Program-made: the position numbers and the translations under genes
Source of the DNA: Moraxella nasicaprae
GTDB lineage: Bacteria; Pseudomonadota; Gammaproteobacteria; Pseudomonadales; Moraxellaceae
NCBI RefSeq assembly: GCF_025643275.1
Contig: NZ_CP089977.1
Location: 390,001 to 422,000 of the forward strand
Length of the DNA: 32,000 nucleotides
Reading direction: 5' to 3'
The notes under the pieces: model-generated
Told to the model about the DNA's origin: nothing
Databases searched by the model: none
Seen by the model: only the letters and a program-made list of their open reading frames with translations
In this document: positions 176 through 13,901 of the stretch, piece after piece
Numbering within the stretch: the stretch's first letter is position 1
How the letters are laid out: the number at the start of each line of letters is the position of its first letter

Positions 176-1546
176 TCATGCACCCAAGATACTCTGACCG
201 CAAACACGCACCACACGACCATTGATACCGCCTGCTTGTGGTGCAATCAGCCAAGCAATCGTCTCAGCCACATCAACAGGTTCGCCCCCTTGTGTCATCG
301 AGTTCATACGGCGACCCGCCTCTCGAATGGCAAATGGAATTTGCCCTGTCATCTTGGTTTCGATAAATCCTGGTGCGACTGCATTGATGGTGCGATGAGT
401 GCCTTTAAATAGTTTGGCAGTCGCCTCAACCAAGCCAATCACGCCAGCTTTACTCATTGCATAGTTGGTCTGACCTAGATTGCCAGCGATGCCCGAAATG
501 GACGATATGCACACGATGCGTGCAGCATCAGACAGACCATCGTGTGCCAATAGATAATCATTGATGCGTGCAATGGCAGTCAAGTTAATGCCTAGCACCA
601 AATCCCACTTATCCTCACTCATGTTTGCCAAAGTCTTATCACGAGTTACGCCTGCATTATGCACCACACCATCAAGCTGACCACAAGCACGCACAATCTG
701 CTCGCCTGCATCGTCTGCTGTGATGTCAAGCGGTAATGCCTGACCGCCAATCTGTCCAGCCACTTTTTGTAGCTCTGGCAAGGCTTGTGGTACATCAAGA
801 CAATACACTTTTGCCCCATCTCGTGCCAAGATAGTGGCGATGGCTTGACCGATACCACGACTTGCCCCTGTTACTAGGATTTTTTTGCCAGCCAAAGTGT
901 CATTGGTCTGATAAGATGATTGGCAAATCGTAATCGGCTGACCTGACACATAGGCAGATTTTGCTGACATGAAGAAATTTAAAGTGTGTTCCAGTTCGTT
1001 TTCTGCACCTTTTTGTAGGTATAGCACTTGGGCGGTGATGCCTTTTTTAAACTCTTTGGCAACCGACTTAACAAAACCCAACAACGCTCTTTGAGCAAGG
1101 GCAAAATGCACATCGCCCCCTGTGCAACAATCAGGGCGAGCAATGACAATGATTCTGCCTGATGACTTGATACGACGAGCAATCAGATGAAAAAACTCAT
1201 AAACCTGTTTTAGGTCATCGCTGTTTTTTAGGTTGGTGGCATCAAAAATTGCCACTTTAAAGCGAGCATTCTCATCGCTCAATCGCTCAGTTAAGCTGGT
1301 GCTGGCAAGCGTCAATAATTCGCCTTGATTGGTGGAAATGTTGGCAGATAGCTTGCCCAAAATCTGTGCCAACTGCTGACGCACCGCCTCATCATCGCCC
1401 ACAGACAGACCCAGTGCCACCTCGCCACGCAAAATCGGCTGACCTGCTTCATAGCGGTCAAGTTTCATTGGGACAGGCAGTCCTAGATTTTTGGCAACTT
1501 TTCTACCCAAAGAAGACTGCATCAATTCGCCATAACGGTCACTCAT
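176..1546 (-). CDS. two-domain short-chain dehydrogenase/reductase, FabG-like 3-oxoacyl-(ACP/CoA) reductase (456 aa)
   Basis: ORF track 176..1558. The C-terminal half has Rossmann TGASRGIG and catalytic YAMSKAG (YxxxK). Start moved to ATG 1546 (MSDRYGEL) because GGAG lies 5 nt upstream; the track start is a TTG inside that RBS. Confidence 0.85.
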   Translation of the reverse strand: MSDRYGELMQSSLGRKVAKNLGLPVPMKLDRYEAGQPILRGEVALGLSVGDDEAVRQQLAQILGKLSANISTNQGELLTLASTSLTERLSDENARFKVAIFDATNLKNSDDLKQVYEFFHLIARRIKSSGRIIVIARPDCCTGGDVHFALAQRALLGFVKSVAKEFKKGITAQVLYLQKGAENELEHTLNFFMSAKSAYVSGQPITICQSSYQTNDTLAGKKILVTGASRGIGQAIATILARDGAKVYCLDVPQALPELQKVAGQIGGQALPLDITADDAGEQIVRACGQLDGVVHNAGVTRDKTLANMSEDKWDLVLGINLTAIARINDYLLAHDGLSDAARIVCISSISGIAGNLGQTNYAMSKAGVIGLVEATAKLFKGTHRTINAVAPGFIETKMTGQIPFAIREAGRRMNSMTQGGEPVDVAETIAWLIAPQAGGINGRVVRVCGQSILGA

Positions 1547-1731
1547 AATTTCTCCCAAAAATTGGCTGTATTGCTATTTTATTTTATGCTAACACCTTAC
1601 CACAAAATCATCAAAAAACCAAACCCAACTTACATACCAAATACCACATTTAACGCACAAAAAACCGCCAGCCAGCTTAATGAACCCATCAAAACACCGA
1701 CCGACGGTTACAAATAAAGCAGTAAAGGCAA

Positions 1732-3081
1732 TCAGGTCAGCGTGGTCTGCTTAGTCTCACGCACCATCAATAAACCAATCAACGACAGCACCGCATTGAC
1801 AAGCATATAGCAGCCCACGCCAATAAGACCAAACTGAGCGTTAAGCTTGATGGCGACGATGGTTGCTACACTTGCCCCCAAAATGCCCGCCAAAGTAAAA
1901 CCAAGCGACGCACCCAGATAACGCACCTGCGTGGCAAATAACTCAGGCAAAATCACCGCCATTGGTCCAAAATTTGCCCCAAGCAAAACCATGCCAATGC
2001 CAATAAAACCATACAGCCCGACCGCCTGATACACCAAGCCATCTTGTGCCAATAACATCGGCAAACACAGCCCAAACACACCAATCAGACTGGTGCTGGC
2101 AATTAGGACAGTTTTGCGACCCAGTTTATCACACAGATGACCTGCCGCCACAATACTGATGGCAAATACCACCGCCCCAAACAGCAATGCCATCGTAAAC
2201 TGCTCACTGGGCAAACCTAAGCCCTGTGCATGCCCAAAATCAGACAGCTGCGTACTGCTCTTTGCATAAATCTGCCCAAAAATAACCACCATATAAAATT
2301 GCACATAGCCAATAATAGCAATCAAAATCGCCTTAAAAAACGGCACTTTATGCGTTGTAAAAATCTGCTTAATGGGCAATTTGTGTAGTTTATCCTGATT
2401 TTTTGCATGGTCAAAAACCGCACTTTCTTGCAGAGTAAGACGCACATACAGACCAATCATCACAAGGCAAGCAGATGCAATGAACGGCAATCGCCACGCC
2501 CAAGCACTGACCGCCTCTTTACCTAAGCCAAGTGCCAATCCCAAAAAGACCAAGTTCGCCAAAAACAGACCTAGTGCCGCTCCCAGCTGCGGAAAGGCAG
2601 TGAATAATCCTCGCTTGCTTTGTGGGGCGTTTTCCAATGCCACCAATGCCGCACCACCCCATTCGCCACCAAGTCCAATGCCCTGCAAGGTACGACATAA
2701 AAATAGCAATACTGTCGCCCATACGCCAATGCTGGCATAAGTTGGCAAAAGACCAATCACCACCGTTGAAACACCCATCAACAGCAGTGAAATGACAAGG
2801 GCATTTTTTCGCCCCAAAGTATCGCCATAATGCCCAAACAACATCGCCCCCACGGGTCGTGCCAACAGATTGACCGCAAAAGTGTAAAGTGCTGCAATCT
2901 GACTGGCAACAGGGTCACTATGGTCAAAAAATTGCTCAGAAAACACCAATACCGTCGCCATTGCATAGATATAGTTGTCAAAATACTCAATGGTTGTGCC
3001 AGTCATTGTAGCGATGGCGACTTTTTTGGGGTTGTTTTTTTGGGGTAAAGACAGATAATGATTATCGCCAGATTGGTTCAT
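1732..3081 (-). CDS. MFS transporter, metabolite:H+ symporter (MHS) type, substrate unknown
   Basis: 449-aa ORF with ~12 hydrophobic segments. The N-terminus TGTTIEYFDNYIYAMATVLVF and the GHYGDTLGRK loop are typical of the KgtP/ProP/ShiA-like MHS subfamily. The ATG at 3081 overlaps the thiE stop (ATGA). Confidence 0.85.
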   Translation of the reverse strand: MNQSGDNHYLSLPQKNNPKKVAIATMTGTTIEYFDNYIYAMATVLVFSEQFFDHSDPVASQIAALYTFAVNLLARPVGAMLFGHYGDTLGRKNALVISLLLMGVSTVVIGLLPTYASIGVWATVLLFLCRTLQGIGLGGEWGGAALVALENAPQSKRGLFTAFPQLGAALGLFLANLVFLGLALGLGKEAVSAWAWRLPFIASACLVMIGLYVRLTLQESAVFDHAKNQDKLHKLPIKQIFTTHKVPFFKAILIAIIGYVQFYMVVIFGQIYAKSSTQLSDFGHAQGLGLPSEQFTMALLFGAVVFAISIVAAGHLCDKLGRKTVLIASTSLIGVFGLCLPMLLAQDGLVYQAVGLYGFIGIGMVLLGANFGPMAVILPELFATQVRYLGASLGFTLAGILGASVATIVAIKLNAQFGLIGVGCYMLVNAVLSLIGLLMVRETKQTTLT

Positions 3082-3743
3082 TTTAGTTGCTCCACAGCAG
3101 TTATGATGTTGTCAGCTTGCGTGATGGCAGAGATGATTGCCACGCCATTTGCTCCATAAGTACGCAAAGTCTGAGCGGATTGATGTGTGATGCCACCAAT
3201 TGCCACAAAAGGTTTTTGGATACCAGCTTGTCGCAAAATTTTGGGAAATTCGATGCCGACAGCAGGTTTTTGATCGCTTTTTGATTGGGTTGGGAAAATC
3301 GGACCTGTGCCAAAATAGCTCACTTGCGGTATGCTATCCCAATATCGAGCCTGTTCCAGAGTATTGACCGACAGACCCAGAATCATCGGTTTGGGCATTT
3401 CTTGGGCAATGTCAATAATCGACTTATCCCCCTGTCCCACATGAATGCCGTCCACGCCAAGTTCAAAGGCAAGCTCCACCATGTCATTTAGAATAAACGG
3501 CACGCCATACCGCTGGCACAGCCGCTGGCATTCTTTGGCAAGTTGTTTTTGTTCGCTTGGATTATCTTGCAGCGAAAATGCTCCCTTATCTCGAAATTGG
3601 TAACAGCTGATTCCTGCTTGCAAGGCTTGATGTAGGATATTTAGCAGATGCTCGCTGCGGTCGCCTGCTAGATGCCGACAGTCTTGTGTTCCTGCGATAA
3701 AGTATAAATTTAGGATTTTGGGGTCAAATGATGACAAATTCAT
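3078..3743 (-). CDS. thiE: thiamine-phosphate synthase
   Basis: ThiE motifs are present: YQFRDK, DGIHVGQGD, GPIFPTQSK, AIGGI. Start set at ATG 3743 ([18 protein letters not shown]), which overlaps the thiD stop as ATGA. The track start is an upstream alternative codon inside thiD. Confidence 0.9.
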   Translation of the reverse strand: MNLSSFDPKILNLYFIAGTQDCRHLAGDRSEHLLNILHQALQAGISCYQFRDKGAFSLQDNPSEQKQLAKECQRLCQRYGVPFILNDMVELAFELGVDGIHVGQGDKSIIDIAQEMPKPMILGLSVNTLEQARYWDSIPQVSYFGTGPIFPTQSKSDQKPAVGIEFPKILRQAGIQKPFVAIGGITHQSAQTLRTYGANGVAIISAITQADNIITAVEQLK

Positions 3744-4558
3744 AACAGATGTTTCCTTGCTTTGATGGCGTCCGCCCCTGCCCAATGATTGACAGGATTG
3801 ATGCCGCCTCCGACCTTAATGGGGTTGGCAATGGCGTGCGTGATGAATGCCTTAGCGTCTTTGATGGCATCCATCATCGGCACACCTTTGGCAAGCTGAG
3901 CTGTCAGGCAAGCTGAAAAACTACAACCAGTGCCGTGCGTCCCTGACTGTAAAATCCGTCTTTGCTCCACAAAAAATCTTGAACCACCTACCGACACCCA
4001 ATCACGACACCACTCATCATCACGATGACCACCTTTGATGATGACTCCTTTGATGCCCATTTGATGCAACTTATCAATGGCAAGCTGTAAGCTGTCATCA
4101 TCACTAATGCTCAATCCTGTCAAAACTTGTGCCTCTGGAATGTTGGGCGTGATGACATCTGCCAATGGCAATAATTTTATCAATGCCGTTACCGCATTTT
4201 CTTGTAATAAATTTGCCCCACCTTTGGCAATCATCACAGGGTCGATAATCAATTTGCCAACGCTTGCCTTGTGCTGTACCAAAAAATCATACACCGCCTG
4301 TATGCTTGCCACATCGCCAAGCATACCAATCTTGCACGCCTTAATACTAAAATCATCAACCACCGCATGTAGCTGGCTTGTGATGGTCTTAGGCGGTATC
4401 TGATGAATATCAAACACACCTTTGGTGTTTTGGGCGGTGATGGCGGTAATCACCGAAGTGCCAAACACCCCGCACAGCCCAAAAGTTTTCAAATCTGCCT
4501 GTATGCCTGCACCGCCACCAGAATCCGACCCTGCGATGGTTAGAGCTTGATACATCAT
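3740..4558 (-). CDS. thiD: hydroxymethylpyrimidine/phosphomethylpyrimidine kinase
   Basis: 272 aa with N-terminal [21 protein letters not shown] and a C-terminal GTGCSFSA ribokinase-fold signature. The ATG overlaps the thiM stop (ATGA, 4555..4558). Confidence 0.92.
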
Positions 4559-5370
4559 GACAATCCTCCTTGATACTCATCAATCTTGGCAAATTTGGCA
4601 ACCGTGTCATCATCAATCGCCCCAAGACAATCCATCAGCCCCACATAAAACTGCCCCAACTGGGTTTGTTCCAATCGAGCTGCCACCAATTCTCCTGCCA
4701 CAGCATAGCTACCAGCTGCCGCCACAACCGCCTGCAATGCCTCAGATGGATTTGCCACCGCCAAAAATGCACCGCACACGCCAGCCAAAAGACAGCCAGA
4801 TGCGGTAATCTTGGGAAACATTGGTGTGCCATTATTGATGGTAAAGACCACATCGCCATCACTGACATAATCCACCGCTCCGCTAACCGCCACAACACAG
4901 CCGTATCGATTGGCACAGTCTTTGGCAAGCATCGCCACATCAGCATGACCACAGCCAGCGTCCACGCCTTTGGCTTGCCAATCCACACCTGCCAAAAACG
5001 CCACCTCGCCAGCATTGCCACGAATGGCAGAAAAACGAATTTCGCTAAGCAGTTTTTTGGCAATCTGTTGACGATAAGCAGTTGCACCAGCACCCACAGG
5101 GTCTAGCACCACAGGCTTACCCAGCTCATTCATCGCCTTGCCAGCCACAAGCATCGCCTCTACTTGTGTGATGCTCAACGCCCCCATATTGATGACCAAA
5201 GCATCGGCAATGGCAGGCACTTGACTCATCTCATCAAGTGTGGACGACATGAATGGCGATGCACCAATGGCAAGCAATCCATTGGCGGTAAAATGAGCAG
5301 ACACCAGATTGGTGATGTTATGCACCAAAGGGTTTTGCTGGCGAATCTTGGATAGATACTGAAAATTCAT
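4555..5370 (-). CDS. thiM: hydroxyethylthiazole kinase
   Basis: 271 aa. NPLVHNITNLVSAHFTANGLLAIGASPFM is characteristic of ThiM. GGGAG RBS lies 6 nt before ATG 5370, and the gene is downstream of a TPP riboswitch. Confidence 0.92.
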   Translation of the reverse strand: MNFQYLSKIRQQNPLVHNITNLVSAHFTANGLLAIGASPFMSSTLDEMSQVPAIADALVINMGALSITQVEAMLVAGKAMNELGKPVVLDPVGAGATAYRQQIAKKLLSEIRFSAIRGNAGEVAFLAGVDWQAKGVDAGCGHADVAMLAKDCANRYGCVVAVSGAVDYVSDGDVVFTINNGTPMFPKITASGCLLAGVCGAFLAVANPSEALQAVVAAAGSYAVAGELVAARLEQTQLGQFYVGLMDCLGAIDDDTVAKFAKIDEYQGGLS

Positions 5371-5499
5371 AAATTCTCCCTAAAAACGATTTTATTCATC
5401 GAAGATTGATGGCAGATTGTCATCAACCACCAGTATTTAGGTCAAATTCATCAAGACAGTAAGCACTCATCAAAATTGCTTGGACAATATGATGCTTAC

Positions 5500-5552
5500 C
5501 AAAAAGACAAAAGCCCTTTTAGGTCTTGATAAAACAGACCCAAAAAAGGCTT
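5500..5552 (-). terminator. rho-independent terminator-like hairpin in the thiM leader (candidate riboswitch expression platform)
   Basis: The reverse strand reads AAGCCTTTTTTGGGTCTGTTTTATCAAGACCTAAAAGGGCTT followed by TTGTCTTTTT. This is a long imperfect hairpin plus U-tract, ~45 nt downstream of the aptamer. Confidence 0.55.
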
Positions 5553-5596
5553 AGTTAGGACGGCAGACAACCGTCAAATAAATCAAATAAGTTCAT

Positions 5597-5682
5597 CTTA
5601 GTTCCCTACGCCAGTGCTAACTGTATCAGGTTCACGGGTATCATCTCAGCCTGACCATCACGGTCTAGGCACCCCGACTAAA
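5597..5682 (-). promoter_or_regulatory. TPP (THI-box) riboswitch aptamer
   Basis: The reverse strand reads TTAGTCGGGGTGCCTAGACCGTGATGGTCAGGCTGAGATGATACCCGTGAACCTGATACAGTTAGCACTGGCGTAGGGAACTAAG. It contains the conserved GGGGUGC, CUGAGA, ACCC, AACCUGAU and GCGUAGGGAA elements in canonical order, upstream of thiM. Confidence 0.92.
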
Positions 5683-5693
5683 TTTTGTCATTT

Positions 5694-5722
5694 AGTTTAA
5701 ACAAATCAAAAAATATTGTCAA
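5694..5722 (-). promoter_or_regulatory. candidate sigma70 promoter of the thi operon
   Basis: The reverse strand has TTGACA (5722..5717), a 17-nt spacer and TAAACT (5699..5694). This places a start site a few nt before the riboswitch P1 stem. Confidence 0.5.
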
Positions 5723-5896
5723 TATAAAATAAATCACTGTATAAAATTAAATCAAAATAATAACCATAAGTATTCAAATATAAATTTCTTATAATATTTT
5801 ATTATAATATAAGGAAAAATTGGCTTAATTCATGATTTTGTTGGTAAATAATGCTAATCTAAGCCCAATCACCATTCATCAATTAGGAAATTTCAC

Positions 5897-7180
5897 ATGA
5901 CCATCAAAAAAGTCGCCATCTTGGGCGGAAATCGCATTCCCTTTGCTCGTAGTAACGGTGTGTATGCCGATGCCAGCAATATTGATATGTTAAGTGCTGC
6001 ATTGGACGGTTTGGTTGAGCGGTTTGATTTGGCGGATAAAGAGATTGGCGAAGTTGTTGCTGGCACTGTCCTAAAACACAGCAATGACCTAAATCTTACC
6101 AGAGAATCACTGCTCAACACTCGCCTATCGCCAACCACACCAAGCTACGATATCTCCCAAGCGTGCGGTACAGGCTTGCAGGCAGCATTTGCTGTTGCCA
6201 ACAAAATCGCACTTGGTATCATCGATAGCGGTATTGCAGGCGGGGTGGACACGACTTCGGACGCACCGATTGCCTTAGGCGATGGCGTGCGAAAATCCTT
6301 GATTCGACTGGGTAATGCCAAGACCGCCAAAGACCGCCTGACCGCTCTTAGCACCATCAATCCAAAACAACTGCTTGCTTTCCCCCAAAATGGCGAACCA
6401 CGCACTCGTCTATCGATGGGGGAGCATCAGGCCATTACCGCCCTAGAATGGAACATCAGCCGTGCCGCCCAAGATGAATTGGCTTATCAAAGCCATCAAA
6501 ATCTTGCCAAAGCCTATGCCGAGGGGTTCTTTGACGACCTAATCACACCATACAAAGGTCTTAGCCAAGATAACAACCTGCGTGCCGATACCACGCTTGA
6601 AAAACTTGCCAGCCTAAAACCTGTATTTGGCAAAAAGAATGCCAACCCCACGATGACCGCTGGCAACTCCACCCCATTAACCGATGGTGCATCTTGTGTT
6701 TTGCTTGCCAGTGACGAGTGGGCAGATAAACACGGTTATAAGCCCCTAGCCTACCTAACCCATCAGCAAACAGCGGCGGTGGATTTTATTGGTAAAGAAG
6801 GCTTGACCGAAGGACTTTTGATGGCACCTGCTTATGCTGTGCCAAAAATGCTTGCTAAGGCTGGTCTGACTTTGCAGGATTTTGATTTTTATGAAATTCA
6901 CGAAGCCTTTGCATCACAGGTGCTATCGACACTTGCCGCATGGGAAGATGAAAACTTTTGCAAAAACCGCTTGGGTCTAGATGCACCGCTTGGCTCAATC
7001 GACCGCACTAAACTCAATGTCAATGGGTCAAGTCTGGCTGCTGGACACCCTTTTGCCGCCACAGGTGGGCGAATCCTTGCCAGTGCTGCCAAACTCCTTG
7101 CCCAAAAGGGCTCTGGTCGTGCATTGATTTCTATCTGTGCTGCTGGTGGTCAGGGTGTAACCTGCATCCTAGAACGCTGA
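5897..7180 (+). CDS. acetyl-CoA C-acyltransferase (thiolase family)
   Basis: 427 aa with a thiolase active-site Cys context (ISQACGTGLQA), C-terminal NVNGSSLAAGHPFAATG and CAAGGQG motifs. Confidence 0.9.
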   Translation: MTIKKVAILGGNRIPFARSNGVYADASNIDMLSAALDGLVERFDLADKEIGEVVAGTVLKHSNDLNLTRESLLNTRLSPTTPSYDISQACGTGLQAAFAVANKIALGIIDSGIAGGVDTTSDAPIALGDGVRKSLIRLGNAKTAKDRLTALSTINPKQLLAFPQNGEPRTRLSMGEHQAITALEWNISRAAQDELAYQSHQNLAKAYAEGFFDDLITPYKGLSQDNNLRADTTLEKLASLKPVFGKKNANPTMTAGNSTPLTDGASCVLLASDEWADKHGYKPLAYLTHQQTAAVDFIGKEGLTEGLLMAPAYAVPKMLAKAGLTLQDFDFYEIHEAFASQVLSTLAAWEDENFCKNRLGLDAPLGSIDRTKLNVNGSSLAAGHPFAATGGRILASAAKLLAQKGSGRALISICAAGGQGVTCILER

Positions 7181-7190
7181 TTGACAATCC

Positions 7191-7226
7191 AAAAAAAACA
7201 GCACCGTCATTGGTGCTGTTTTTTAT
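7191..7226. terminator. bidirectional rho-independent terminator shared by the thiolase gene (+) and the small-protein operon (-)
   Basis: The 9-bp stem AACAGCACC/GGTGCTGTT (7197..7205 / 7212..7220) has a 6-nt loop and is flanked by an A-run on the left and a T-run on the right. Confidence 0.75.
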
Positions 7227-7514
7227 TCATTGATTTTTCGATTGTTGTCGCCACGCCTTATATTTCATATTGGCAAATAAGATTGGCCATATACCAACTG
7301 CATATAACGCCCCGCCCAGCCATTGAAAATAAAGCGTTTCCTCGCCAAACATATGATTGGTATAAACACCCAATAAAAAGAAAACGATGGTAAATAACAA
7401 CCAATCTAGCTTGATTGTCTTGCCGTCCCAATAACAAAATACCAAACTGGCAAGTCCCAAAAATGCCAATATGCTCATCGTCAAATCAAAAGAAAAATCA
7501 TAATATGTCATCAT
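7227..7514 (-). CDS. small membrane protein A (95 aa, three predicted TM helices), no recognised family
   Basis: GGAG lies 8 nt before ATG 7514. There are three hydrophobic stretches (about aa 11-29, 36-56, 63-83) and a basic C-terminal tail. It is the last gene before the terminator. Confidence 0.6.
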   Translation of the reverse strand: MMTYYDFSFDLTMSILAFLGLASLVFCYWDGKTIKLDWLLFTIVFFLLGVYTNHMFGEETLYFQWLGGALYAVGIWPILFANMKYKAWRQQSKNQ

Positions 7515-7537
7515 CGTCTAACTCCTTGATTGGTTGG

Positions 7538-7834
7538 TTAAAATTTTTTTATTCTAAATTTATCCCTAAAAATATGGGAACGAAGCAACTGTTCATATTG
7601 CGGACGAGAGCTTTGAGAAACAACCAATGATATGATTAACACCATCGCCAAATGCATTGCCATGACATTCGCCGTCTGCTTTTCTGGATAATGCCACAAT
7701 AAAAAAATACTGGGCAAAAACCCCACCGCTATATGTAGCAGACGCCACCAGTGAATTTTCTTATCATGAAATAGCATGACTAACAAATAAAACTGACATG
7801 CAAAAACCAGCTCTGTTGCAAAAAATCCAAGCAT
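7538..7834 (-). CDS. small membrane protein B (98 aa, three predicted TM helices), no recognised family
   Basis: Start set at ATG 7834 (MLGFFATEL) with GGAG 8 nt upstream; the track start is the preceding GTG. It has three hydrophobic stretches and a basic tail RDKFRIKKF. The 11-nt RBS context AATCAAGGAGT is identical to that of gene A. Confidence 0.6.
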   Translation of the reverse strand: MLGFFATELVFACQFYLLVMLFHDKKIHWWRLLHIAVGFLPSIFLLWHYPEKQTANVMAMHLAMVLIISLVVSQSSRPQYEQLLRSHIFRDKFRIKKF

Positions 7835-7849
7835 CACAACACTCCTTGA

Positions 7850-8167
7850 TTATTCCGCCCAAAATACCCTTTCTTTCAGCTGAGCAACCTTCCACCCTTG
7901 ATAAAACCAAATAATGAAAAAAGGCGACATTGCTCTTGTTACGGCAGCATAAACATAATTAAAAGCGGAAGCACCCAATTCTTTTCTTAGCTCGTTGGTC
8001 TCAATTAGATTTTGTGTCTCAACAATATCTGAATGTACAGCAGCCATCGCAACCAAAACCAACACAATCAATACATGTATCATGGTCGTAAATTCAATGA
8101 CATGTTTTCTCCAAAACAGCAAGGTAAAAAAAGCACCAAAAATCAATGCCATAAATACATTCGCCAT
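7850..8167 (-). CDS. small membrane protein C (105 aa, three predicted TM helices with a ~25-aa polar loop), no recognised family
   Basis: GGAGG lies 9 nt before ATG 8167. Hydrophobic stretches are at about aa 2-19, 26-44 and 72-92. The stop is 15 nt before the start of gene B. Confidence 0.6.
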   Translation of the reverse strand: MANVFMALIFGAFFTLLFWRKHVIEFTTMIHVLIVLVLVAMAAVHSDIVETQNLIETNELRKELGASAFNYVYAAVTRAMSPFFIIWFYQGWKVAQLKERVFWAE

Positions 8168-8185
8168 CCATCAAACCTCCATATC

Positions 8186-8215
8186 ATCAATAGACCGCAT
8201 AAGCAGTCTATTGAT
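8186..8215 (-). other. perfect 10-bp inverted repeat (intercistronic stem-loop)
   Basis: ATCAATAGAC (8186..8195) and GTCTATTGAT (8206..8215) are separated by 10 nt. On the mRNA strand it ends 7 nt before the GGAGG RBS of gene C. No U-tract follows. Confidence 0.45.
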
Positions 8216-8327
8216 ATTGTTTAGATATTATTGATGAATTTGGTCTTTGCCATCTGTATCTAAACACTTCTCGTTCAAACTTTTTACCATCATCACGACT
8301 GTTGGTTGTTCTTTGTATTTTTGCCAT
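8208..8327 (-). CDS. possible 39-aa very basic peptide (coding status uncertain)
   Basis: Internal ATG 8327 of track ORF 8208..8426 gives MAKIQRTTNSRDDGKKFEREVFRYRWQRPNSSIISKQYQ, with a weak AAGG 9 nt upstream. No family recognised. Confidence 0.2.
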   Translation of the reverse strand: MAKIQRTTNSRDDGKKFEREVFRYRWQRPNSSIISKQYQ

Positions 8328-8337
8328 CAGAATTACC

Positions 8338-8526
8338 TTATTTGGATTTGGTATCATTCTTTGAAGGTTGTGAATCAAATCGCCAACTTTCAAGCCAAGA
8401 AATACCATCTGTGATGTTAAAAGCACCTTCCATGAAAGCCTCTATTCTGGCTTTTAAAACACCCATATTTAATCTTAAACCACCGCCATGAAGAGATTTA
8501 CAAGACACATCGGTCGCAGACCGCAT
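8338..8526 (-). CDS. possible 62-aa (or shorter) hypothetical protein (coding status uncertain)
   Basis: Track ORF MRSATDVSCKSLHGGGLRLNMGVLKARIEAFMEGAFNITDGISWLESWRFDSQPSKNDTKSK. The best RBS (GAGG, 5 nt) actually precedes the internal ATG giving MEGAFNITDG... (31 aa). It overlaps another frame (8208..8426). Confidence 0.25.
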   Translation of the reverse strand: MRSATDVSCKSLHGGGLRLNMGVLKARIEAFMEGAFNITDGISWLESWRFDSQPSKNDTKSK

Positions 8527-8555
8527 CTATCCAATTTTTATAAAGTTATTTGGGA

Positions 8556-8639
8556 TTATTTGCCATCATCGGCATGAGCGATGCTTGTTGCCAGCATCGT
8601 GATGAGCGTACCAGTCATCAATAGGTGATGTGTTTTCAT
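8556..8639 (-). CDS. 27-aa signal-peptide-like / single-TM micro-ORF
   Basis: Not in the ORF track (too short). The reverse strand has GGAG, 6 nt, ATG(8639), then MKTHHLLMTGTLITMLATSIAHADDGK and TAA(8558..8556). Stops follow in all three frames within 45 nt. Confidence 0.35.
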   Translation of the reverse strand: MKTHHLLMTGTLITMLATSIAHADDGK

Positions 8640-8670: not shown

Positions 8671-8710
8671 TGCACAAAGAAAACAATAATCAGCACATCT
8701 TCCTTGTGCA
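8671..8710 (-). promoter_or_regulatory. leader hairpin (11-bp stem, 18-nt loop) in the 5'-UTR of the small-protein operon
   Basis: The mRNA strand reads TGCACAAGGAAGATGTGCTGATTATTGTTTTCTTTGTGCA. The arms TGCACAAGGAA/TTCTTTGTGCA pair with one G-U. It lies between the predicted start site (~8725) and the RBS at 8649..8646. Confidence 0.45.
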
Positions 8711-8712
8711 TT

Positions 8713-8744
8713 TTTATACTATTACAAATTTATACTATTACAAA
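8713..8744. repeat. perfect tandem duplication of a 16-bp unit (TTTATACTATTACAAA x2)
   Basis: Units at 8713..8728 and 8729..8744 are identical. Each carries a -10-like TAGTAT on the minus strand. Confidence 0.9.
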
Positions 8745-8760
8745 ATAATCTGTCTGTCAA
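8732..8760 (-). promoter_or_regulatory. candidate strong sigma70 promoter of the small-protein operon
   Basis: The reverse strand has TTGACA (8760..8755), a 17-nt spacer and TAGTAT (8737..8732). The -10 lies in repeat copy 2, and a second identical hexamer lies 16 nt downstream in copy 1. Confidence 0.5.
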
Positions 8761-8784: not shown

Positions 8785-8819
8785 AAAAAACACGACAGCC
8801 TAAGCCATCGTGTTTTTTG
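8785..8819. terminator. rho-independent terminator after cstA; copy 1 of an identical 35-bp element
   Basis: AAAAAACACGACAGCCTAAGCCATCGTGTTTTTTG has a CACGA..TCGTG stem extended by GC/GU pairs and A-run/T-run flanks. It lies 17 nt downstream of the cstA stop. Confidence 0.75.
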
Positions 8820-8835
8820 ATTATCTGACGATGAT

Positions 8836-10308
8836 TTAGTCGTCTAACTGCTGCTTAGTTGGGCGAACCATCATCATGAATACCACAAAAGACACCGCAG
8901 TAATCGCCAATCCCAGCCATACCGACAAGTCATAATCCAATCCCAAGCCAATCGGAGCATTGAGAATAAAGGTGGTACATACCGCTGTCATGAATATCGC
9001 AGGCACGGTAGATACCCAGTGGAATTTCCCTTTATTCATCAGATAGGCAGAAGTTACCCATAGTGTTACCATAGCTGTGGTTTGGTTTGCCCAACCAAAA
9101 TAACGCCACAAAATCTGAAAATCAACTTTGGATACCAAAAAGCCCACCACGAATAACGGCAAAGCAATCATCAAACGCTTCATCAATGTTTTTTGTTCAA
9201 AGTTCAGCCATTCAGCAATCGTCAAACGAGCCGCACGAAATGCTGTATCACCTGAGGTAATCGGCAAAACCACCACGCCAAGCACCGCCATGATACCGCC
9301 AGCCATGCCTAACATGCCAACCGCAGAATCATAGACAACTTTTGACGGTGTACCTTGCAATGCCTCCACCAATCCAGCTTGACTGTCATAAAAACTTAGC
9401 CCCACCATACACCAAATCAAGGCAATCACACCCTCGGCAATCATCGCTCCATAAAAGATAAAGCGAGCCTCTTTTTCATTTTCGGCACAACGAGCCATCA
9501 GTGGTGTTTGCGTGGCATGAAAACCAGAAATCGCCCCACAGGCAATGGTCAAAAACAAAATTGGCCAAATCGGCACATTGTCTGGATGCATATTTTTGAA
9601 GAAATCAGCAAAACCAATGTCTGTACCGACCGTACGGAAAAAACTGATGTCATTGGCAAGCAAGCCATACAACATACCAAAAGTCATGAATAACAACAAT
9701 GCCCCAAAAATTGGGTAAATGCGACCAATGATTTTGTCAATCGGTACTAAGGTTGCCAAAATATAGTAGGCAAAAATGACGGTCGTCCATACCGCCAAGA
9801 TAGTCTCTTTTGACCAACTGCCATTGGTTGCACCACTCAAATCCATCGTGATGTTTGTCAATAATGAAGCAGGACTTGCCACAAACACCACGCCCACCAG
9901 CAGCAGTAGCAATACCGCCAAGATGTTCATAAAGTGTTTAAAAGGCTTGCCCAGATATTTACCAGCCAAAAATGGTAAATTCGCCCCACCATTACGAATG
10001 CTTAGCATGCCAGTCAAGTAATCATGCACCGCACCTGCAAAAATACAGCCAAACACAATCCACAGCATCGCCACAGGTCCATACAACGCCCCCAAGATTG
10101 GCCCGAAAATCGGACCTGTACCAGCGATATTTAGCAGTTGAATCAGCCAAATTTTGCGTTTTGACATCGGTACATAGTCCACACCATCAGCCATCGTATG
10201 AGCTGGTGTGGCTCGCTCTGGACGAATGCCAAAAATCCTCTCAATGACTTGGCTATATAAAAAATAGCCCATCAATAGCAAGGCAACGCACGCCAAAAAC
10301 CATAACAT
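8836..10308 (-). CDS. cstA: carbon starvation protein CstA family transporter (short ~490-aa form)
   Basis: Polytopic membrane protein with the CstA signature LLNIAGTGPIFGPILGALYGP. Start moved to ATG 10308 (MLWFLACVALLL) with GGGAG 7 nt upstream; the track start adds 24 aa without an RBS. Confidence 0.85.
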   Translation of the reverse strand: MLWFLACVALLLMGYFLYSQVIERIFGIRPERATPAHTMADGVDYVPMSKRKIWLIQLLNIAGTGPIFGPILGALYGPVAMLWIVFGCIFAGAVHDYLTGMLSIRNGGANLPFLAGKYLGKPFKHFMNILAVLLLLLVGVVFVASPASLLTNITMDLSGATNGSWSKETILAVWTTVIFAYYILATLVPIDKIIGRIYPIFGALLLFMTFGMLYGLLANDISFFRTVGTDIGFADFFKNMHPDNVPIWPILFLTIACGAISGFHATQTPLMARCAENEKEARFIFYGAMIAEGVIALIWCMVGLSFYDSQAGLVEALQGTPSKVVYDSAVGMLGMAGGIMAVLGVVVLPITSGDTAFRAARLTIAEWLNFEQKTLMKRLMIALPLFVVGFLVSKVDFQILWRYFGWANQTTAMVTLWVTSAYLMNKGKFHWVSTVPAIFMTAVCTTFILNAPIGLGLDYDLSVWLGLAITAVSFVVFMMMVRPTKQQLDD

Positions 10309-10437
10309 ATCTATACTCCCTATAACCCAAATAACATCACACAATCCATCAGCAAACCCAGCAATCAGCCAATTTGCCAATCCTTATCACTCATTTGACA
10401 AAACATCATCTTGATACACAAGCCAACTTACACTCGC

Positions 10438-10626
10438 TCATTTGGCATCATTAGCCTCATCTGCCTGAACGGGCAAGCGATGTTCGATGCGTTTGCCATT
10501 GTCATCAAACTGATATTTTGGCACGCAGCTACGACAGCCGCCTTGCTCCACACCCATGTCTTTGCATAGCTGGTTATAGGCATTCCATAATTTTCGCCAA
10601 AAACCGACATTTTCTTGATTAGACAT
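10438..10626 (-). CDS. small CstA-associated protein, YbdD/YjiX (DUF466)-like (tentative)
   Basis: 62 aa, with GGAG 5 nt before ATG 10626. The sequence FWRKLWNAYNQLCKDMGVEQGGCRSC resembles the GG-x-x-C-C end of YbdD/YjiX proteins. These small proteins classically sit next to cstA paralogues. Confidence 0.5.
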   Translation of the reverse strand: MSNQENVGFWRKLWNAYNQLCKDMGVEQGGCRSCVPKYQFDDNGKRIEHRLPVQADEANDAK

Positions 10627-12805: not shown

Positions 12806-13901
12806 TTACAATCCAGCTTTTAAACTTGCTTCAATAAATCTATCTAAGTCGCCATCAAGCACCGCTCCTGTGTTACTGTTCTCAACGCCAGTACGCAAGT
12901 CCTTAATGCGTGAATCATCAAGCACATAAGAGCGAATCTGCGACCCCCAGCCAATGTCAGATTTGCTGTCTTCTAGGGCTTGCTGTTTTTCCATGCGTTT
13001 TTGCATTTCTAGTTCATACAGCTTGGCACGCAGCATTTTCATGGCGGTGTCTTTGTTGGCATGCTGTGAGCGTTCGTTTTGACACGCCACGACCACCCCT
13101 GTGGGTTGGTGGGTAATACGCACCGCAGAATCTGTGGTATTAACATGCTGACCGCCAGCACCTGATGAGCGATAAGTATCGATACGCAAATCAGCAGGAT
13201 TGATGTCAATCTGAACATTATCATCAATTTCAGGGGAAACAAACACCGCCGCAAATGAAGTATGACGACCATTATTGCTATCAAACGGCGACTTACGCAC
13301 CAAACGATGCACACCTGTCTCGGTGCGTAACCAACCAAAAGCATAATCGCCCTTGACTGAGATGGTTGCTGACTTGATGCCAGCCACGCCACCTTCGCTG
13401 ATTTCGATGATTTCTGCCTTAAAGCCGTGCGACTCACACCATCTGGTGTACATTCGTAGCAACATCTGTGACCAATCTTGGGCTTCTGTACCGCCAGAAC
13501 CTGCCTGAATGTCCAAATAGCAATTATTGGCGTCCATCTCGCCAGAGAACATACGCTTAAACTCTAAATCCTCAACCTTAGCACGAGCTTCATCAAGCTC
13601 ACTTTGCACATCGGCAAGCAAGCTCTCATCATCTGCCTCCACCGCCAGTTCAAGCATGGCAATGGCATCTTCTAAGCTGACATCCAGCCCTTCAATGACA
13701 CCGATAATGCCGTCAAGCACCGATTTTTCTTTGCTAATCTTGGTGGCAAGCTCTGGATTGTTCCATAGTTCAGGATTTTCCAGTTCCAGATTGACTTCTT
13801 CTAAGCGTTCTTTTTTGCCTTCAAAGTCAAAGATACCCCCGTAGCTCTTGCCCACGAGCAGCTAGGTCTTTGATTTGTTCTTGATAAATGGCGATTTCCA
13901 T
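12806..13901 (-). CDS. prfB: peptide chain release factor 2, requiring a programmed +1 frameshift
   Basis: Frame 0 runs from ATG 13901 as [24 protein letters not shown], then an in-frame TGA (13829..13827). The +1 frame continues [11 protein letters not shown]... to the stop at 12806. SPF (RKSPFDSNN) and GGQ (SGAGGQHVN) motifs are present. Total 364 aa. Confidence 0.95.
13826..13842 (-). promoter_or_regulatory. prfB autoregulatory +1 frameshift site
   Basis: The reverse strand reads CGGGGGTATCTTTGAC: an internal SD-like GGGGG, 3 nt, then CTT TGA C. This matches the canonical E. coli AGGGGGUAUCUUUGAC site. Confidence 0.95.

Follow-up and report, generated by a model that had tools for sequence, protein, structure and literature searches.

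What are the three small membrane-protein genes that lie back to back on the minus strand at positions 7227 to 8167 of a 32,000-nucleotide stretch of the Moraxella nasicaprae genome (contig NZ_CP089977.1, positions 390,001 to 422,000; the whole stretch is hereafter called the window)? An earlier reading of the window from its letters alone (the sequence-only reading) had described them as a diversified array of proteins with no family that could be named and had likened them to the immunity proteins of E1-group colicins. We call the genes A, B and C in the order in which they are read. Comparison with other strains and lineages placed them as the last three members of a four-gene cassette, S-A-B-C, whose first gene, S, encodes an exported protein and is broken in the sequenced strain. 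We are confident of this architecture and of the evolutionary pattern described below. That the cassette is a polymorphic module of an exported protein and its membrane partners, of the effector-immunity type, is the explanation that we place first, and we hold it tentatively. The genes of the cassette in the window are as follows (ORF, open reading frame; RBS, ribosome-binding site).

S pseudogene: 8639..8208, minus strand; a signal-peptide ORF followed by interrupted remnants of the mature part.
Signal-peptide ORF of S: 8639..8556, minus strand; 27 codons with a strong RBS, reading MKTHHLLMTGTLITMLATSIAHA and then DDGK before a stop.
Remnants of the mature part of S: 8526..8338 and 8426..8208, minus strand; out of frame or interrupted, matching the S-family profile with E 8e-14 and 1.4e-5.
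Gene A: 8167..7850, minus strand; 105 amino acids (aa), three membrane helices, predicted N-out/C-in.
Gene B: 7834..7538, minus strand; 98 aa from ATG or 99 aa from GTG at 7837, three membrane helices.
Gene C: 7514..7227, minus strand; 95 aa, three membrane helices, the most conserved of the trio.

A word-indexed search of 5.8 billion proteins returned one cluster for each gene, all from M. nasicaprae; the products of A, B and C are identical to UXZ05188.1, UXZ05187.1 and UXZ05186.1 of this species, which are annotated as "hypothetical proteins". Related contigs are from goat-associated metagenomes, which for one run is documented in PMC12263884. An exhaustive hidden Markov model search of 1.84 billion representatives, seeded with A only, recovered four further clusters that matched A over the full length at 31–34% identity and were of similar sizes. 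On the contigs of these four other lineages, the A-like gene was followed by a B-like and then by a C-like gene wherever the contig reached, with the orthologue of B always directly after A. Further, an S-like gene with a Sec signal peptide preceded A in all three of these lineages that have upstream sequence. Spacing between the genes ranged from −8 to +41 nt, so that they are tightly packed or overlap. Orthologues of each gene share 20–35% identity and conserved motifs which, together with the ratio of non-synonymous to synonymous polymorphism (pN/pS) of 0.16 given below, indicate that the genes are real, beyond what chance would produce. Because A, B and C are each matched by separate orthologues, in a fixed order, in four other lineages, the three are not diversified copies, and the array proposed by the sequence-only reading gives way to three distinct proteins. 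Judged from gene order, such distinct components in a fixed order behave as the subunits of one complex would.

The chromosomal site of the cassette differed by lineage: it lies between cstA and a thiolase gene in the window, at ftsW-murD in a second lineage and beside a TetR-family gene in a third. Elsewhere the cassette was missing: beside the thiolase gene in 80 other loci (of Moraxellaceae and of genomes more distant), in every further locus of Moraxella, Psychrobacter and Acinetobacter that was examined, and almost throughout the public protein data. The GC content of the trio is 37%, compared with 45–51% in neighbouring genes. The low GC content, the differing chromosomal sites and the absence from 80 related loci point to an accessory, mobile character; on these comparisons, the cassette is accessory and not core, as had been supposed. 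In the window, its neighbours are cstA, the thiolase gene and a thi operon, and the rest of the window is housekeeping and holds no phage gene. No phage, prophage, defence, plasmid, colicin, contact-dependent inhibition (CDI), type VI secretion system (T6SS), toxin or secretion gene was found beside any cassette copy examined, so that the pore-forming toxin or CDI/T6SS effector that had been envisaged next to homologues did not appear. Likewise, no relatives of the cassette were found in the JGI metagenome, IMG/VR, plasmid or GenBank phage collections searched. Relatives beyond M. nasicaprae and one Moraxella sp. metagenome-assembled genome came only from raw-read assemblies. Three cassette lineages (GC about 45%, 40% and 34%; contigs L082–L093 and L106–L115) came from one run series, SRR324061xx to SRR324069xx, and this shared series suggests that the cassette circulates within one habitat community.

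Turning to S, the first 26 residues of the 27-aa ORF in the window are identical to the start of an intact S protein of 144–147 aa encoded in five other M. nasicaprae contigs (L095, L097, L101, L102 and L104). Of the eight M. nasicaprae strains, three (the window, L001 and L094) have a broken S; these share a TAA after codon 27, then a 1-nt deletion and then a TAG, to which the window alone adds another TAA near 8340 and one more insertion or deletion. The p-distance of the remnant between strains was 0.05–0.07, compared with a synonymous divergence (dS) of 0.09–0.11 in neighbouring genes. Thus, the remnant diverges at about the neutral rate, and S is an old pseudogene in these strains. In contrast to the sequence-only reading, in which nothing related was visible nearby, a broken partner gene lies directly upstream of A. 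Among the intact alleles that are not identical, we counted 7–11 synonymous and 1–4 non-synonymous codon differences, which indicates purifying selection. The broken and the intact allele classes share 55% nucleotide identity in the mature part and 95% upstream, including the signal peptide. Further, BLASTP matched the broken allele to the S of another organism, of 34% GC, with E 1e-7 and to the intact M. nasicaprae allele with E 2.1, so that the closer likeness lies outside the species.

All S proteins begin with a signal peptide that contains an AxA cleavage site; their mature part of about 100–125 aa lacks a membrane segment. The mature part is hydrophilic (grand average of hydropathy −1.1 to −1.5), glycine- and polar-rich and of low complexity, its C-terminal half is cationic in three of five cases, and it is probably disordered. 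Pfam and profile scans detected no toxin domain in S. One allele of 99 aa (L109, 1065–1364) is without the central predicted amphipathic helix that is present in the others (compare L085, 591–944), and the central segment is thus not essential for the role of S.

The trio has been kept where S has been lost. Within M. nasicaprae we compared eight loci, which represent six haplotypes. Of the segregating sites in A, B and C together, 30 were synonymous and 19 were not (pN/pS 0.16, binomial p 6e-10); for C alone pN/pS was 0.04. Between the window and L001, neither of which has a working S, the ratio of non-synonymous to synonymous divergence (dN/dS) of the trio was 0.18. No stop or frameshift occurred in A, B or C across the eight loci. 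Thus, the trio is under purifying selection in strains with and without an intact S. The A-B-C haplotype of L001, in which S is broken, was closest to those of L097 and L104, in which S is intact, which indicates that recombination shuffles S class and trio haplotype. The term "orphan" that the sequence-only reading had applied to the trio fits, for a different reason: the upstream exported partner is a pseudogene while the trio is kept. The retention of membrane genes after loss of the exported partner is what orphan immunity would leave behind; it fits this kind of function and is not specific to it. As a separate observation, one database variant of A (P0014) has a frameshifted C-terminus (110 aa, ending in VFGRNNQGVL), the only lesion in any copy of A, B or C.

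With respect to the proteins themselves, hydropathy identified three hydrophobic segments in each of A, B and C, AlphaFold, with low confidence (predicted local distance difference test, pLDDT, 67 for A and 64 for C), built both A and C as three long helices, and the charge distribution predicts an N-out/C-in orientation for all three and for their homologues. The three helices per protein, the three minus-strand ORFs with strong RBSs and the intergenic gaps (15 nt from A to B and 23 nt from B to C) had been described correctly. The RBS of A is GGAGG at 8180..8176, 8 nt before the start, and those of B and C are AGGAG, each 7 nt before the start. A shared 11-nt RBS context had also been reported: the 11-mer AATCAAGGAGT does occur in exactly two copies in the 32 kb, compared with 0.03 expected by chance, and these copies (7851..7841 and 7531..7521) precede the 98-aa and 95-aa genes B and C, not the 105-aa gene A, to which one of them had been assigned. 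The basic C-terminal tails ascribed to all three proteins are clear in B (net charge about +5) and C (+4) and weak in A (+1).

The A family is marked by LLFW[RK]K at the cytoplasmic end of the first transmembrane helix (TM1), His31 in TM2, Asp47 and IWxYQxW in TM3. The B family has LF..K at the end of TM1, Y[DE]xLLKKxIW in the basic tail on the cytoplasmic side and, in four of the five lineages, a histidine in TM2; the C family has AF.GLASL...Y in TM1, Asp10 and Asp37. No BLASTP alignment was obtained between any two of A, B and C, in agreement with the remark that they are not obviously alignable. Profiles of A and B gave a weak signal only (hhalign E 7.5e-4, probability 26%), and on this comparison A and B may be very distant paralogues; C was unrelated to A and to B at the profile level.

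Deep allelic polymorphism was found in the ftsW-linked lineage. By its flanks this lineage is one species (FtsW is 99.5% identical between strains, dS 0.08–0.09), and at least three cassette alleles occur at its one site. The amino-acid identities between these alleles are as follows.

S: 63–80%.
A: 55–85%.
B: 63–75%.
C: 91–99%.

Nucleotide identity was 33–72% in a block that begins with mature S and ends about two-thirds through B; outside this block it was 93–100%, with sharp boundaries. Within the block, dS was 0.3–2.4 and dN/dS 0.13–0.5, which indicates that the allele lineages are old or imported and that there has been no recent positive selection. What does not vary is, in S, the signal peptide and some short motifs; in A, loop 1, the tail and the end of TM1 that faces the cytoplasm; in B, TM1 and all of TM3 plus the tail; and in C, almost everything. 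The variable residues of A and B were enriched in the predicted periplasm-proximal half (65% versus 28%, Fisher p 2e-8, with periplasmic and cytoplasmic boundaries set by hand from hydropathy). Thus, exported and membrane parts co-vary in the ftsW-linked species, as would be expected of an effector and its immunity; in M. nasicaprae, only S falls into two classes.

Database searches gave no family for any of these proteins, in line with the earlier statement that none could be named. A, B, C, their homologues and S had no Pfam, NCBIfam, PHROGs or PADLOC match above threshold. For A, B and C, PADLOC-DB gave no defence-protein match even at E<=10, and at E<=10 Pfam listed no immunity family of colicins or microcins for them or their homologues. 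Profile searches of the PDB were empty for A and C, and for B they gave noise only; Foldseek searches of the PDB with the models of A and C found no significant fold neighbour (best E 4–6). When aligned by hhalign with the ColE1 immunity protein, taken from plasmid ColE1, the probabilities were 0.5% for A, 0.1% for B and 4% for C. Thus, the likeness to E1-group colicin immunity proteins holds for size and number of helices and fails for homology. Holin families gave noise-level PHROGs and Pfam matches only. Several candidates were tried and dropped. A match of A to phrog_32082 (E 0.02) was not shared by other family members, and a match of the S remnant to KdpC (E 0.02–0.07) was noise. No supporting match was found for haem anchors like SdhC and SdhD or for a 2-His-1-Asp metal site built from conserved TM2 residues. 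A functional link to the adjacent cstA or thi operon was set aside, because each lineage has different genes beside the cassette. None of the four families, A, B, C and S, has an annotated or characterised relative; the parts are new, and a membrane component of three subunits is unusual.

We rank an immunity-type function first because deep alleles coexist in one species, their breakpoints lie within genes, the exported and membrane parts co-vary and the membrane parts occur orphaned, a combination known from effector-immunity and self-recognition loci. A, B and C would then assemble as a nine-helix inner-membrane complex with C as its constant core, and the periplasm-facing parts of A and B would form an allele-specific contact surface for S. 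Such a complex would neutralise or exclude S-type proteins that enter the periplasm, whether these came from the cell itself or from its neighbours, for example via outer-membrane vesicles. The sequenced strain would be an immune non-producer and its trio an orphan immunity complex. The wider proposal, a new class of polymorphic, Sec-dependent inter-bacterial system in which a small disordered S in the periplasm is recognised allele-specifically by a three-subunit, nine-helix complex, with two variable subunits that set the specificity and a third as constant core, and in which producers and immune non-producers coexist in animal-associated Moraxella and related bacteria, is possible and, to our minds, doubtful.

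Known systems offer partial parallels. In the staphylococcal agr locus, a divergent block extends over agrB-agrD-agrC between conserved flanks, with breakpoints inside genes. The cassette resembles it in having, within one species, a divergent block that consists of the gene of an exported peptide or protein and parts of membrane-protein genes. It differs in that agr has a protease for processing as well as a histidine kinase and a response regulator, whereas no signalling output was found in the cassette and S greatly exceeds an autoinducing peptide in size. The immunity proteins of colicins E1 and Ia and of pyocin S5 are, like A, B and C, small (about 100–115 aa), three-helix, inner-membrane, accessory and strain-variable. 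Colicin and pyocin immunity proteins can persist as orphans after loss of the toxin. In contrast to them, three different proteins are co-conserved here, with no homology, on the chromosome and with neither a lysis gene nor a plasmid match. Further, S is a small hydrophilic Sec substrate, whereas colicins are large and have receptor, translocation and pore domains. In Proteus mirabilis, the binding of IdsD to IdsE is allele-specific and is set by variable membrane-spanning subdomains (PMC4471559). The cassette is similar in its combination of an exported protein with an adjacent small membrane protein and in the co-location of the variable regions. Unlike S, IdsD is a T6SS substrate and belongs to a six-gene ids operon; the cassette uses Sec, has two variable partners and one constant one and shares no homology with Ids.

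Several points weigh against a function of the effector-immunity type. Immunity is usually conferred by one protein and not by three conserved different ones. S is strongly hydrophilic, unlike membrane-active bacteriocins, a toxic activity is neither known nor predictable for it, and no outer-membrane export route for it is encoded near the cassette. In M. nasicaprae, A and B are 95–99% identical on both S backgrounds and do not track the S allele class. In the ftsW-linked species, dN/dS below 1 in the block gives no direct sign of positive selection, the co-variation could reflect simple linkage in an imported block rather than co-adaptation, and the periplasmic enrichment depends on the hand-set boundaries. 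The copy on L088 adjoins a divergent TetR-type regulator, which is commoner with transport or detoxification genes. Further, only five lineages are known in total, and the structure models are of low confidence and without fold neighbours. The misses in PADLOC, PHROGs, Pfam and the PDB also count on this side. Among the membrane immunity proteins of pore-forming and ColM-type bacteriocins, which are small and have three or four helices, sequence homology is often lacking, and they are often unrecognisable by sequence (PMC5358913); missing homology is therefore in itself no argument against immunity.

If the effector-immunity explanation is true, the cassette would be a compact new recognition or immunity system of four tiny genes with no dedicated secretion machine, and its membrane component would be split into variable and constant subunits. 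It would join the short list of exported and membrane pairs that co-vary within a species (colicin-immunity, Ids and agr). Natural genetic controls exist, namely strains with an intact S, strains with a broken S and three different S-A-B alleles. In addition, only the exhaustive search of raw-read assemblies brought out the conserved operons to which small membrane ORFs annotated as "hypothetical" belong.

The rival that survives best is a small inner-membrane complex of A, B and C with a physiological role of its own, for the transport of ions, metals or solutes or for envelope or acid stress, with S as a dispensable periplasmic accessory comparable to E. coli YbgS or Asr. We judge it unlikely, with a good deal in its favour. 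The trio is kept without S, its fixed order and tight coupling are typical of stoichiometric subunits, and polar residues near the cytoplasmic leaflet (His31 of A, Asp37 and Tyr28 of C and, in four of the five lineages, the TM2 histidine of B) could make up an ion or metal site; the TetR-type regulator beside the L088 copy would also be at home there. S is hydrophilic and has no membrane-active segment, and the intact protein matched the YbgS-like family (Pfam PF13985) below threshold (E 0.01, 16.5 and 15.7 bits versus a cut-off of 27). Like S, YbgS-like proteins have a Sec signal peptide and a polar mature part of low complexity rich in Gly, Asn, Lys and Asp. In E. coli, ybgS is not known to be linked to genes for small membrane proteins, and its own function is unknown. 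Such a complex gives no reason for divergent S, A and B alleles with sharp boundaries or for variation on the periplasmic side, and the very rare, patchy distribution and the lack of any match to a transporter or stress family also speak against it. If it were true, the trio would represent an uncharacterised membrane-complex family of narrow distribution and modest importance. Note that ybgS is among the E. coli genes up-regulated under several stresses (PMC9501238).

The allele block would also suit a strain-identity or signalling module that involves no killing, in which S is an exported ligand and A and B are its allele-specific receptor. Between its conserved flanks, the hypervariable block takes in S and the outward-facing parts of the adjoining membrane proteins; allele-specific binding has a precedent in IdsD-IdsE (PMC4471559), and the agr loci, whose hypervariable region is mentioned in PMC6834553, are comparable in this respect. 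Such a module would need an output, and no output component, be it a kinase, a regulator or another, was found in or beside any copy. Further, S is a Sec-exported protein of 12 kDa without an evident route to other cells, and three of eight M. nasicaprae strains have lost it. We consider this explanation improbable.

Exclusion of phages at the inner membrane or in the periplasm, with the exposed parts in an arms race with phage ejection proteins, is less probable again and has only a slim chance of being correct. Small membrane proteins are typical of exclusion systems, and the cassette is accessory, patchy and of low GC, with its diversification on the periplasmic side. The searches of PADLOC and PHROGs gave no match, those of IMG/VR and GenBank phages no relatives, the surroundings of the copies no prophage or defence genes, and dN/dS is below 1.

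Class I holins are proteins of about 100 aa with three helices, an N-out/C-in orientation and a basic tail, and their families are diverse in sequence. A, B and C agree with those of the lambda S type in predicted size, topology and tail, and might permeabilise the inner membrane, for protein release or cell death, with S as a modulator. Unlike such holins, the cassette has no phage context: no endolysin, spanin or phage gene lies nearby, no family match rises beyond noise, no dual-start motif with an intervening basic residue is present, and three co-conserved proteins would be unusual. We give this idea very little credence. Least credible of all is a tandem array of paralogous orphan ColE1-type immunity genes, one for each toxin, which the size and helix number shared with E1- and Ia-type immunity proteins and the accessory locus had made attractive, since each gene has its own orthologues in the same order elsewhere, C is unrelated to A and B, similarity to the ColE1 immunity protein is lacking, no pore-forming toxin lies beside any copy and the ColE1 immunity protein has no basic C-terminal tail.

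The remaining signals of the cassette in the window are listed below.

Promoter-like site of the S-A-B-C operon: 8732..8760, minus strand; sigma-70-type, TTGACA, 17 nt, TAGTAT, 10 of 12 consensus matches.
Inverted repeat: 8189..8212, minus strand; AATAGAC-N10-GTCTATT, between the stop codon of S and the RBS of A, identical in all strains.
Intrinsic terminator: 7193..7224, minus strand; hairpin and T-run at the end of the operon, which also serves the convergent thiolase gene (5897..7180, plus strand).

The promoter-like site is putative, being a consensus match only; it is kept in all eight strains, four of which have TAATAT as the −10 hexamer. The terminator of cstA (8818..8785) lies immediately upstream of it. 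Just 3' of the −10 hexamer, a 16-nt tandem duplication (TTGTAATAGTATAAAT; about 8721–8752, minus strand) is present in the sequenced strain alone among the eight. The terminator at the end of the operon has a folding energy of −18 kcal/mol (z-score −6.2), and none of 200 shuffled sequences folded as well. We also observed a perfect palindrome, GCACA-N7-TGTGC, at 8693–8709, within what is predicted to be the 5' untranslated region of the cassette; all strains have kept it, and it may be an operator or a small hairpin.

Some features of the neighbouring loci were also recorded. A thiamine pyrophosphate riboswitch (Rfam RF00059, 66.5 bits) lies at 5586–5686 on the minus strand, upstream of an operon of thiM, thiD, thiE and a major facilitator superfamily (MFS) transporter gene (4555..5370 and the following minus-strand genes). 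In other Moraxella (L002–L005 and L061), the genes of a 460-aa short-chain dehydrogenase/reductase (SDR) and of the thiolase are adjacent and divergent (compare 176–7180 of the window); in M. nasicaprae, the thi operon with its controlling riboswitch has been inserted between these two genes. When positions 1732–4558 (minus strand) were compared with 8106–10898 of L001, ThiD, ThiE and the MFS transporter shared 71–79% aa identity, and ThiM, the thiolase and the SDR 98–99%; on this comparison, the ThiD-ThiE-MFS stretch is a second segment of mosaic or recombinant origin near the cassette. Downstream of the thiolase gene, synteny with other species is wholly lost. The cstA gene of the window (8836–10380, minus strand) is about 65% identical to the thiolase-adjacent cstA of M. 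caviae, M. oculi and a Moraxella metagenome-assembled genome (L006, L008 and L009) and has the opposite orientation; by this divergence it is probably a different paralogue or a separate acquisition. It is preceded by a 62-aa DUF5363 ORF (10438..10626). Further along the window, the gene of release factor 2 (PCRF and RF-1 domains; ORF 12806..13855) contains the classic programmed +1 frameshift site at about 13826–13832 (minus strand), where the short upstream peptide ends at CTT TGA C and reading continues in the +1 frame.

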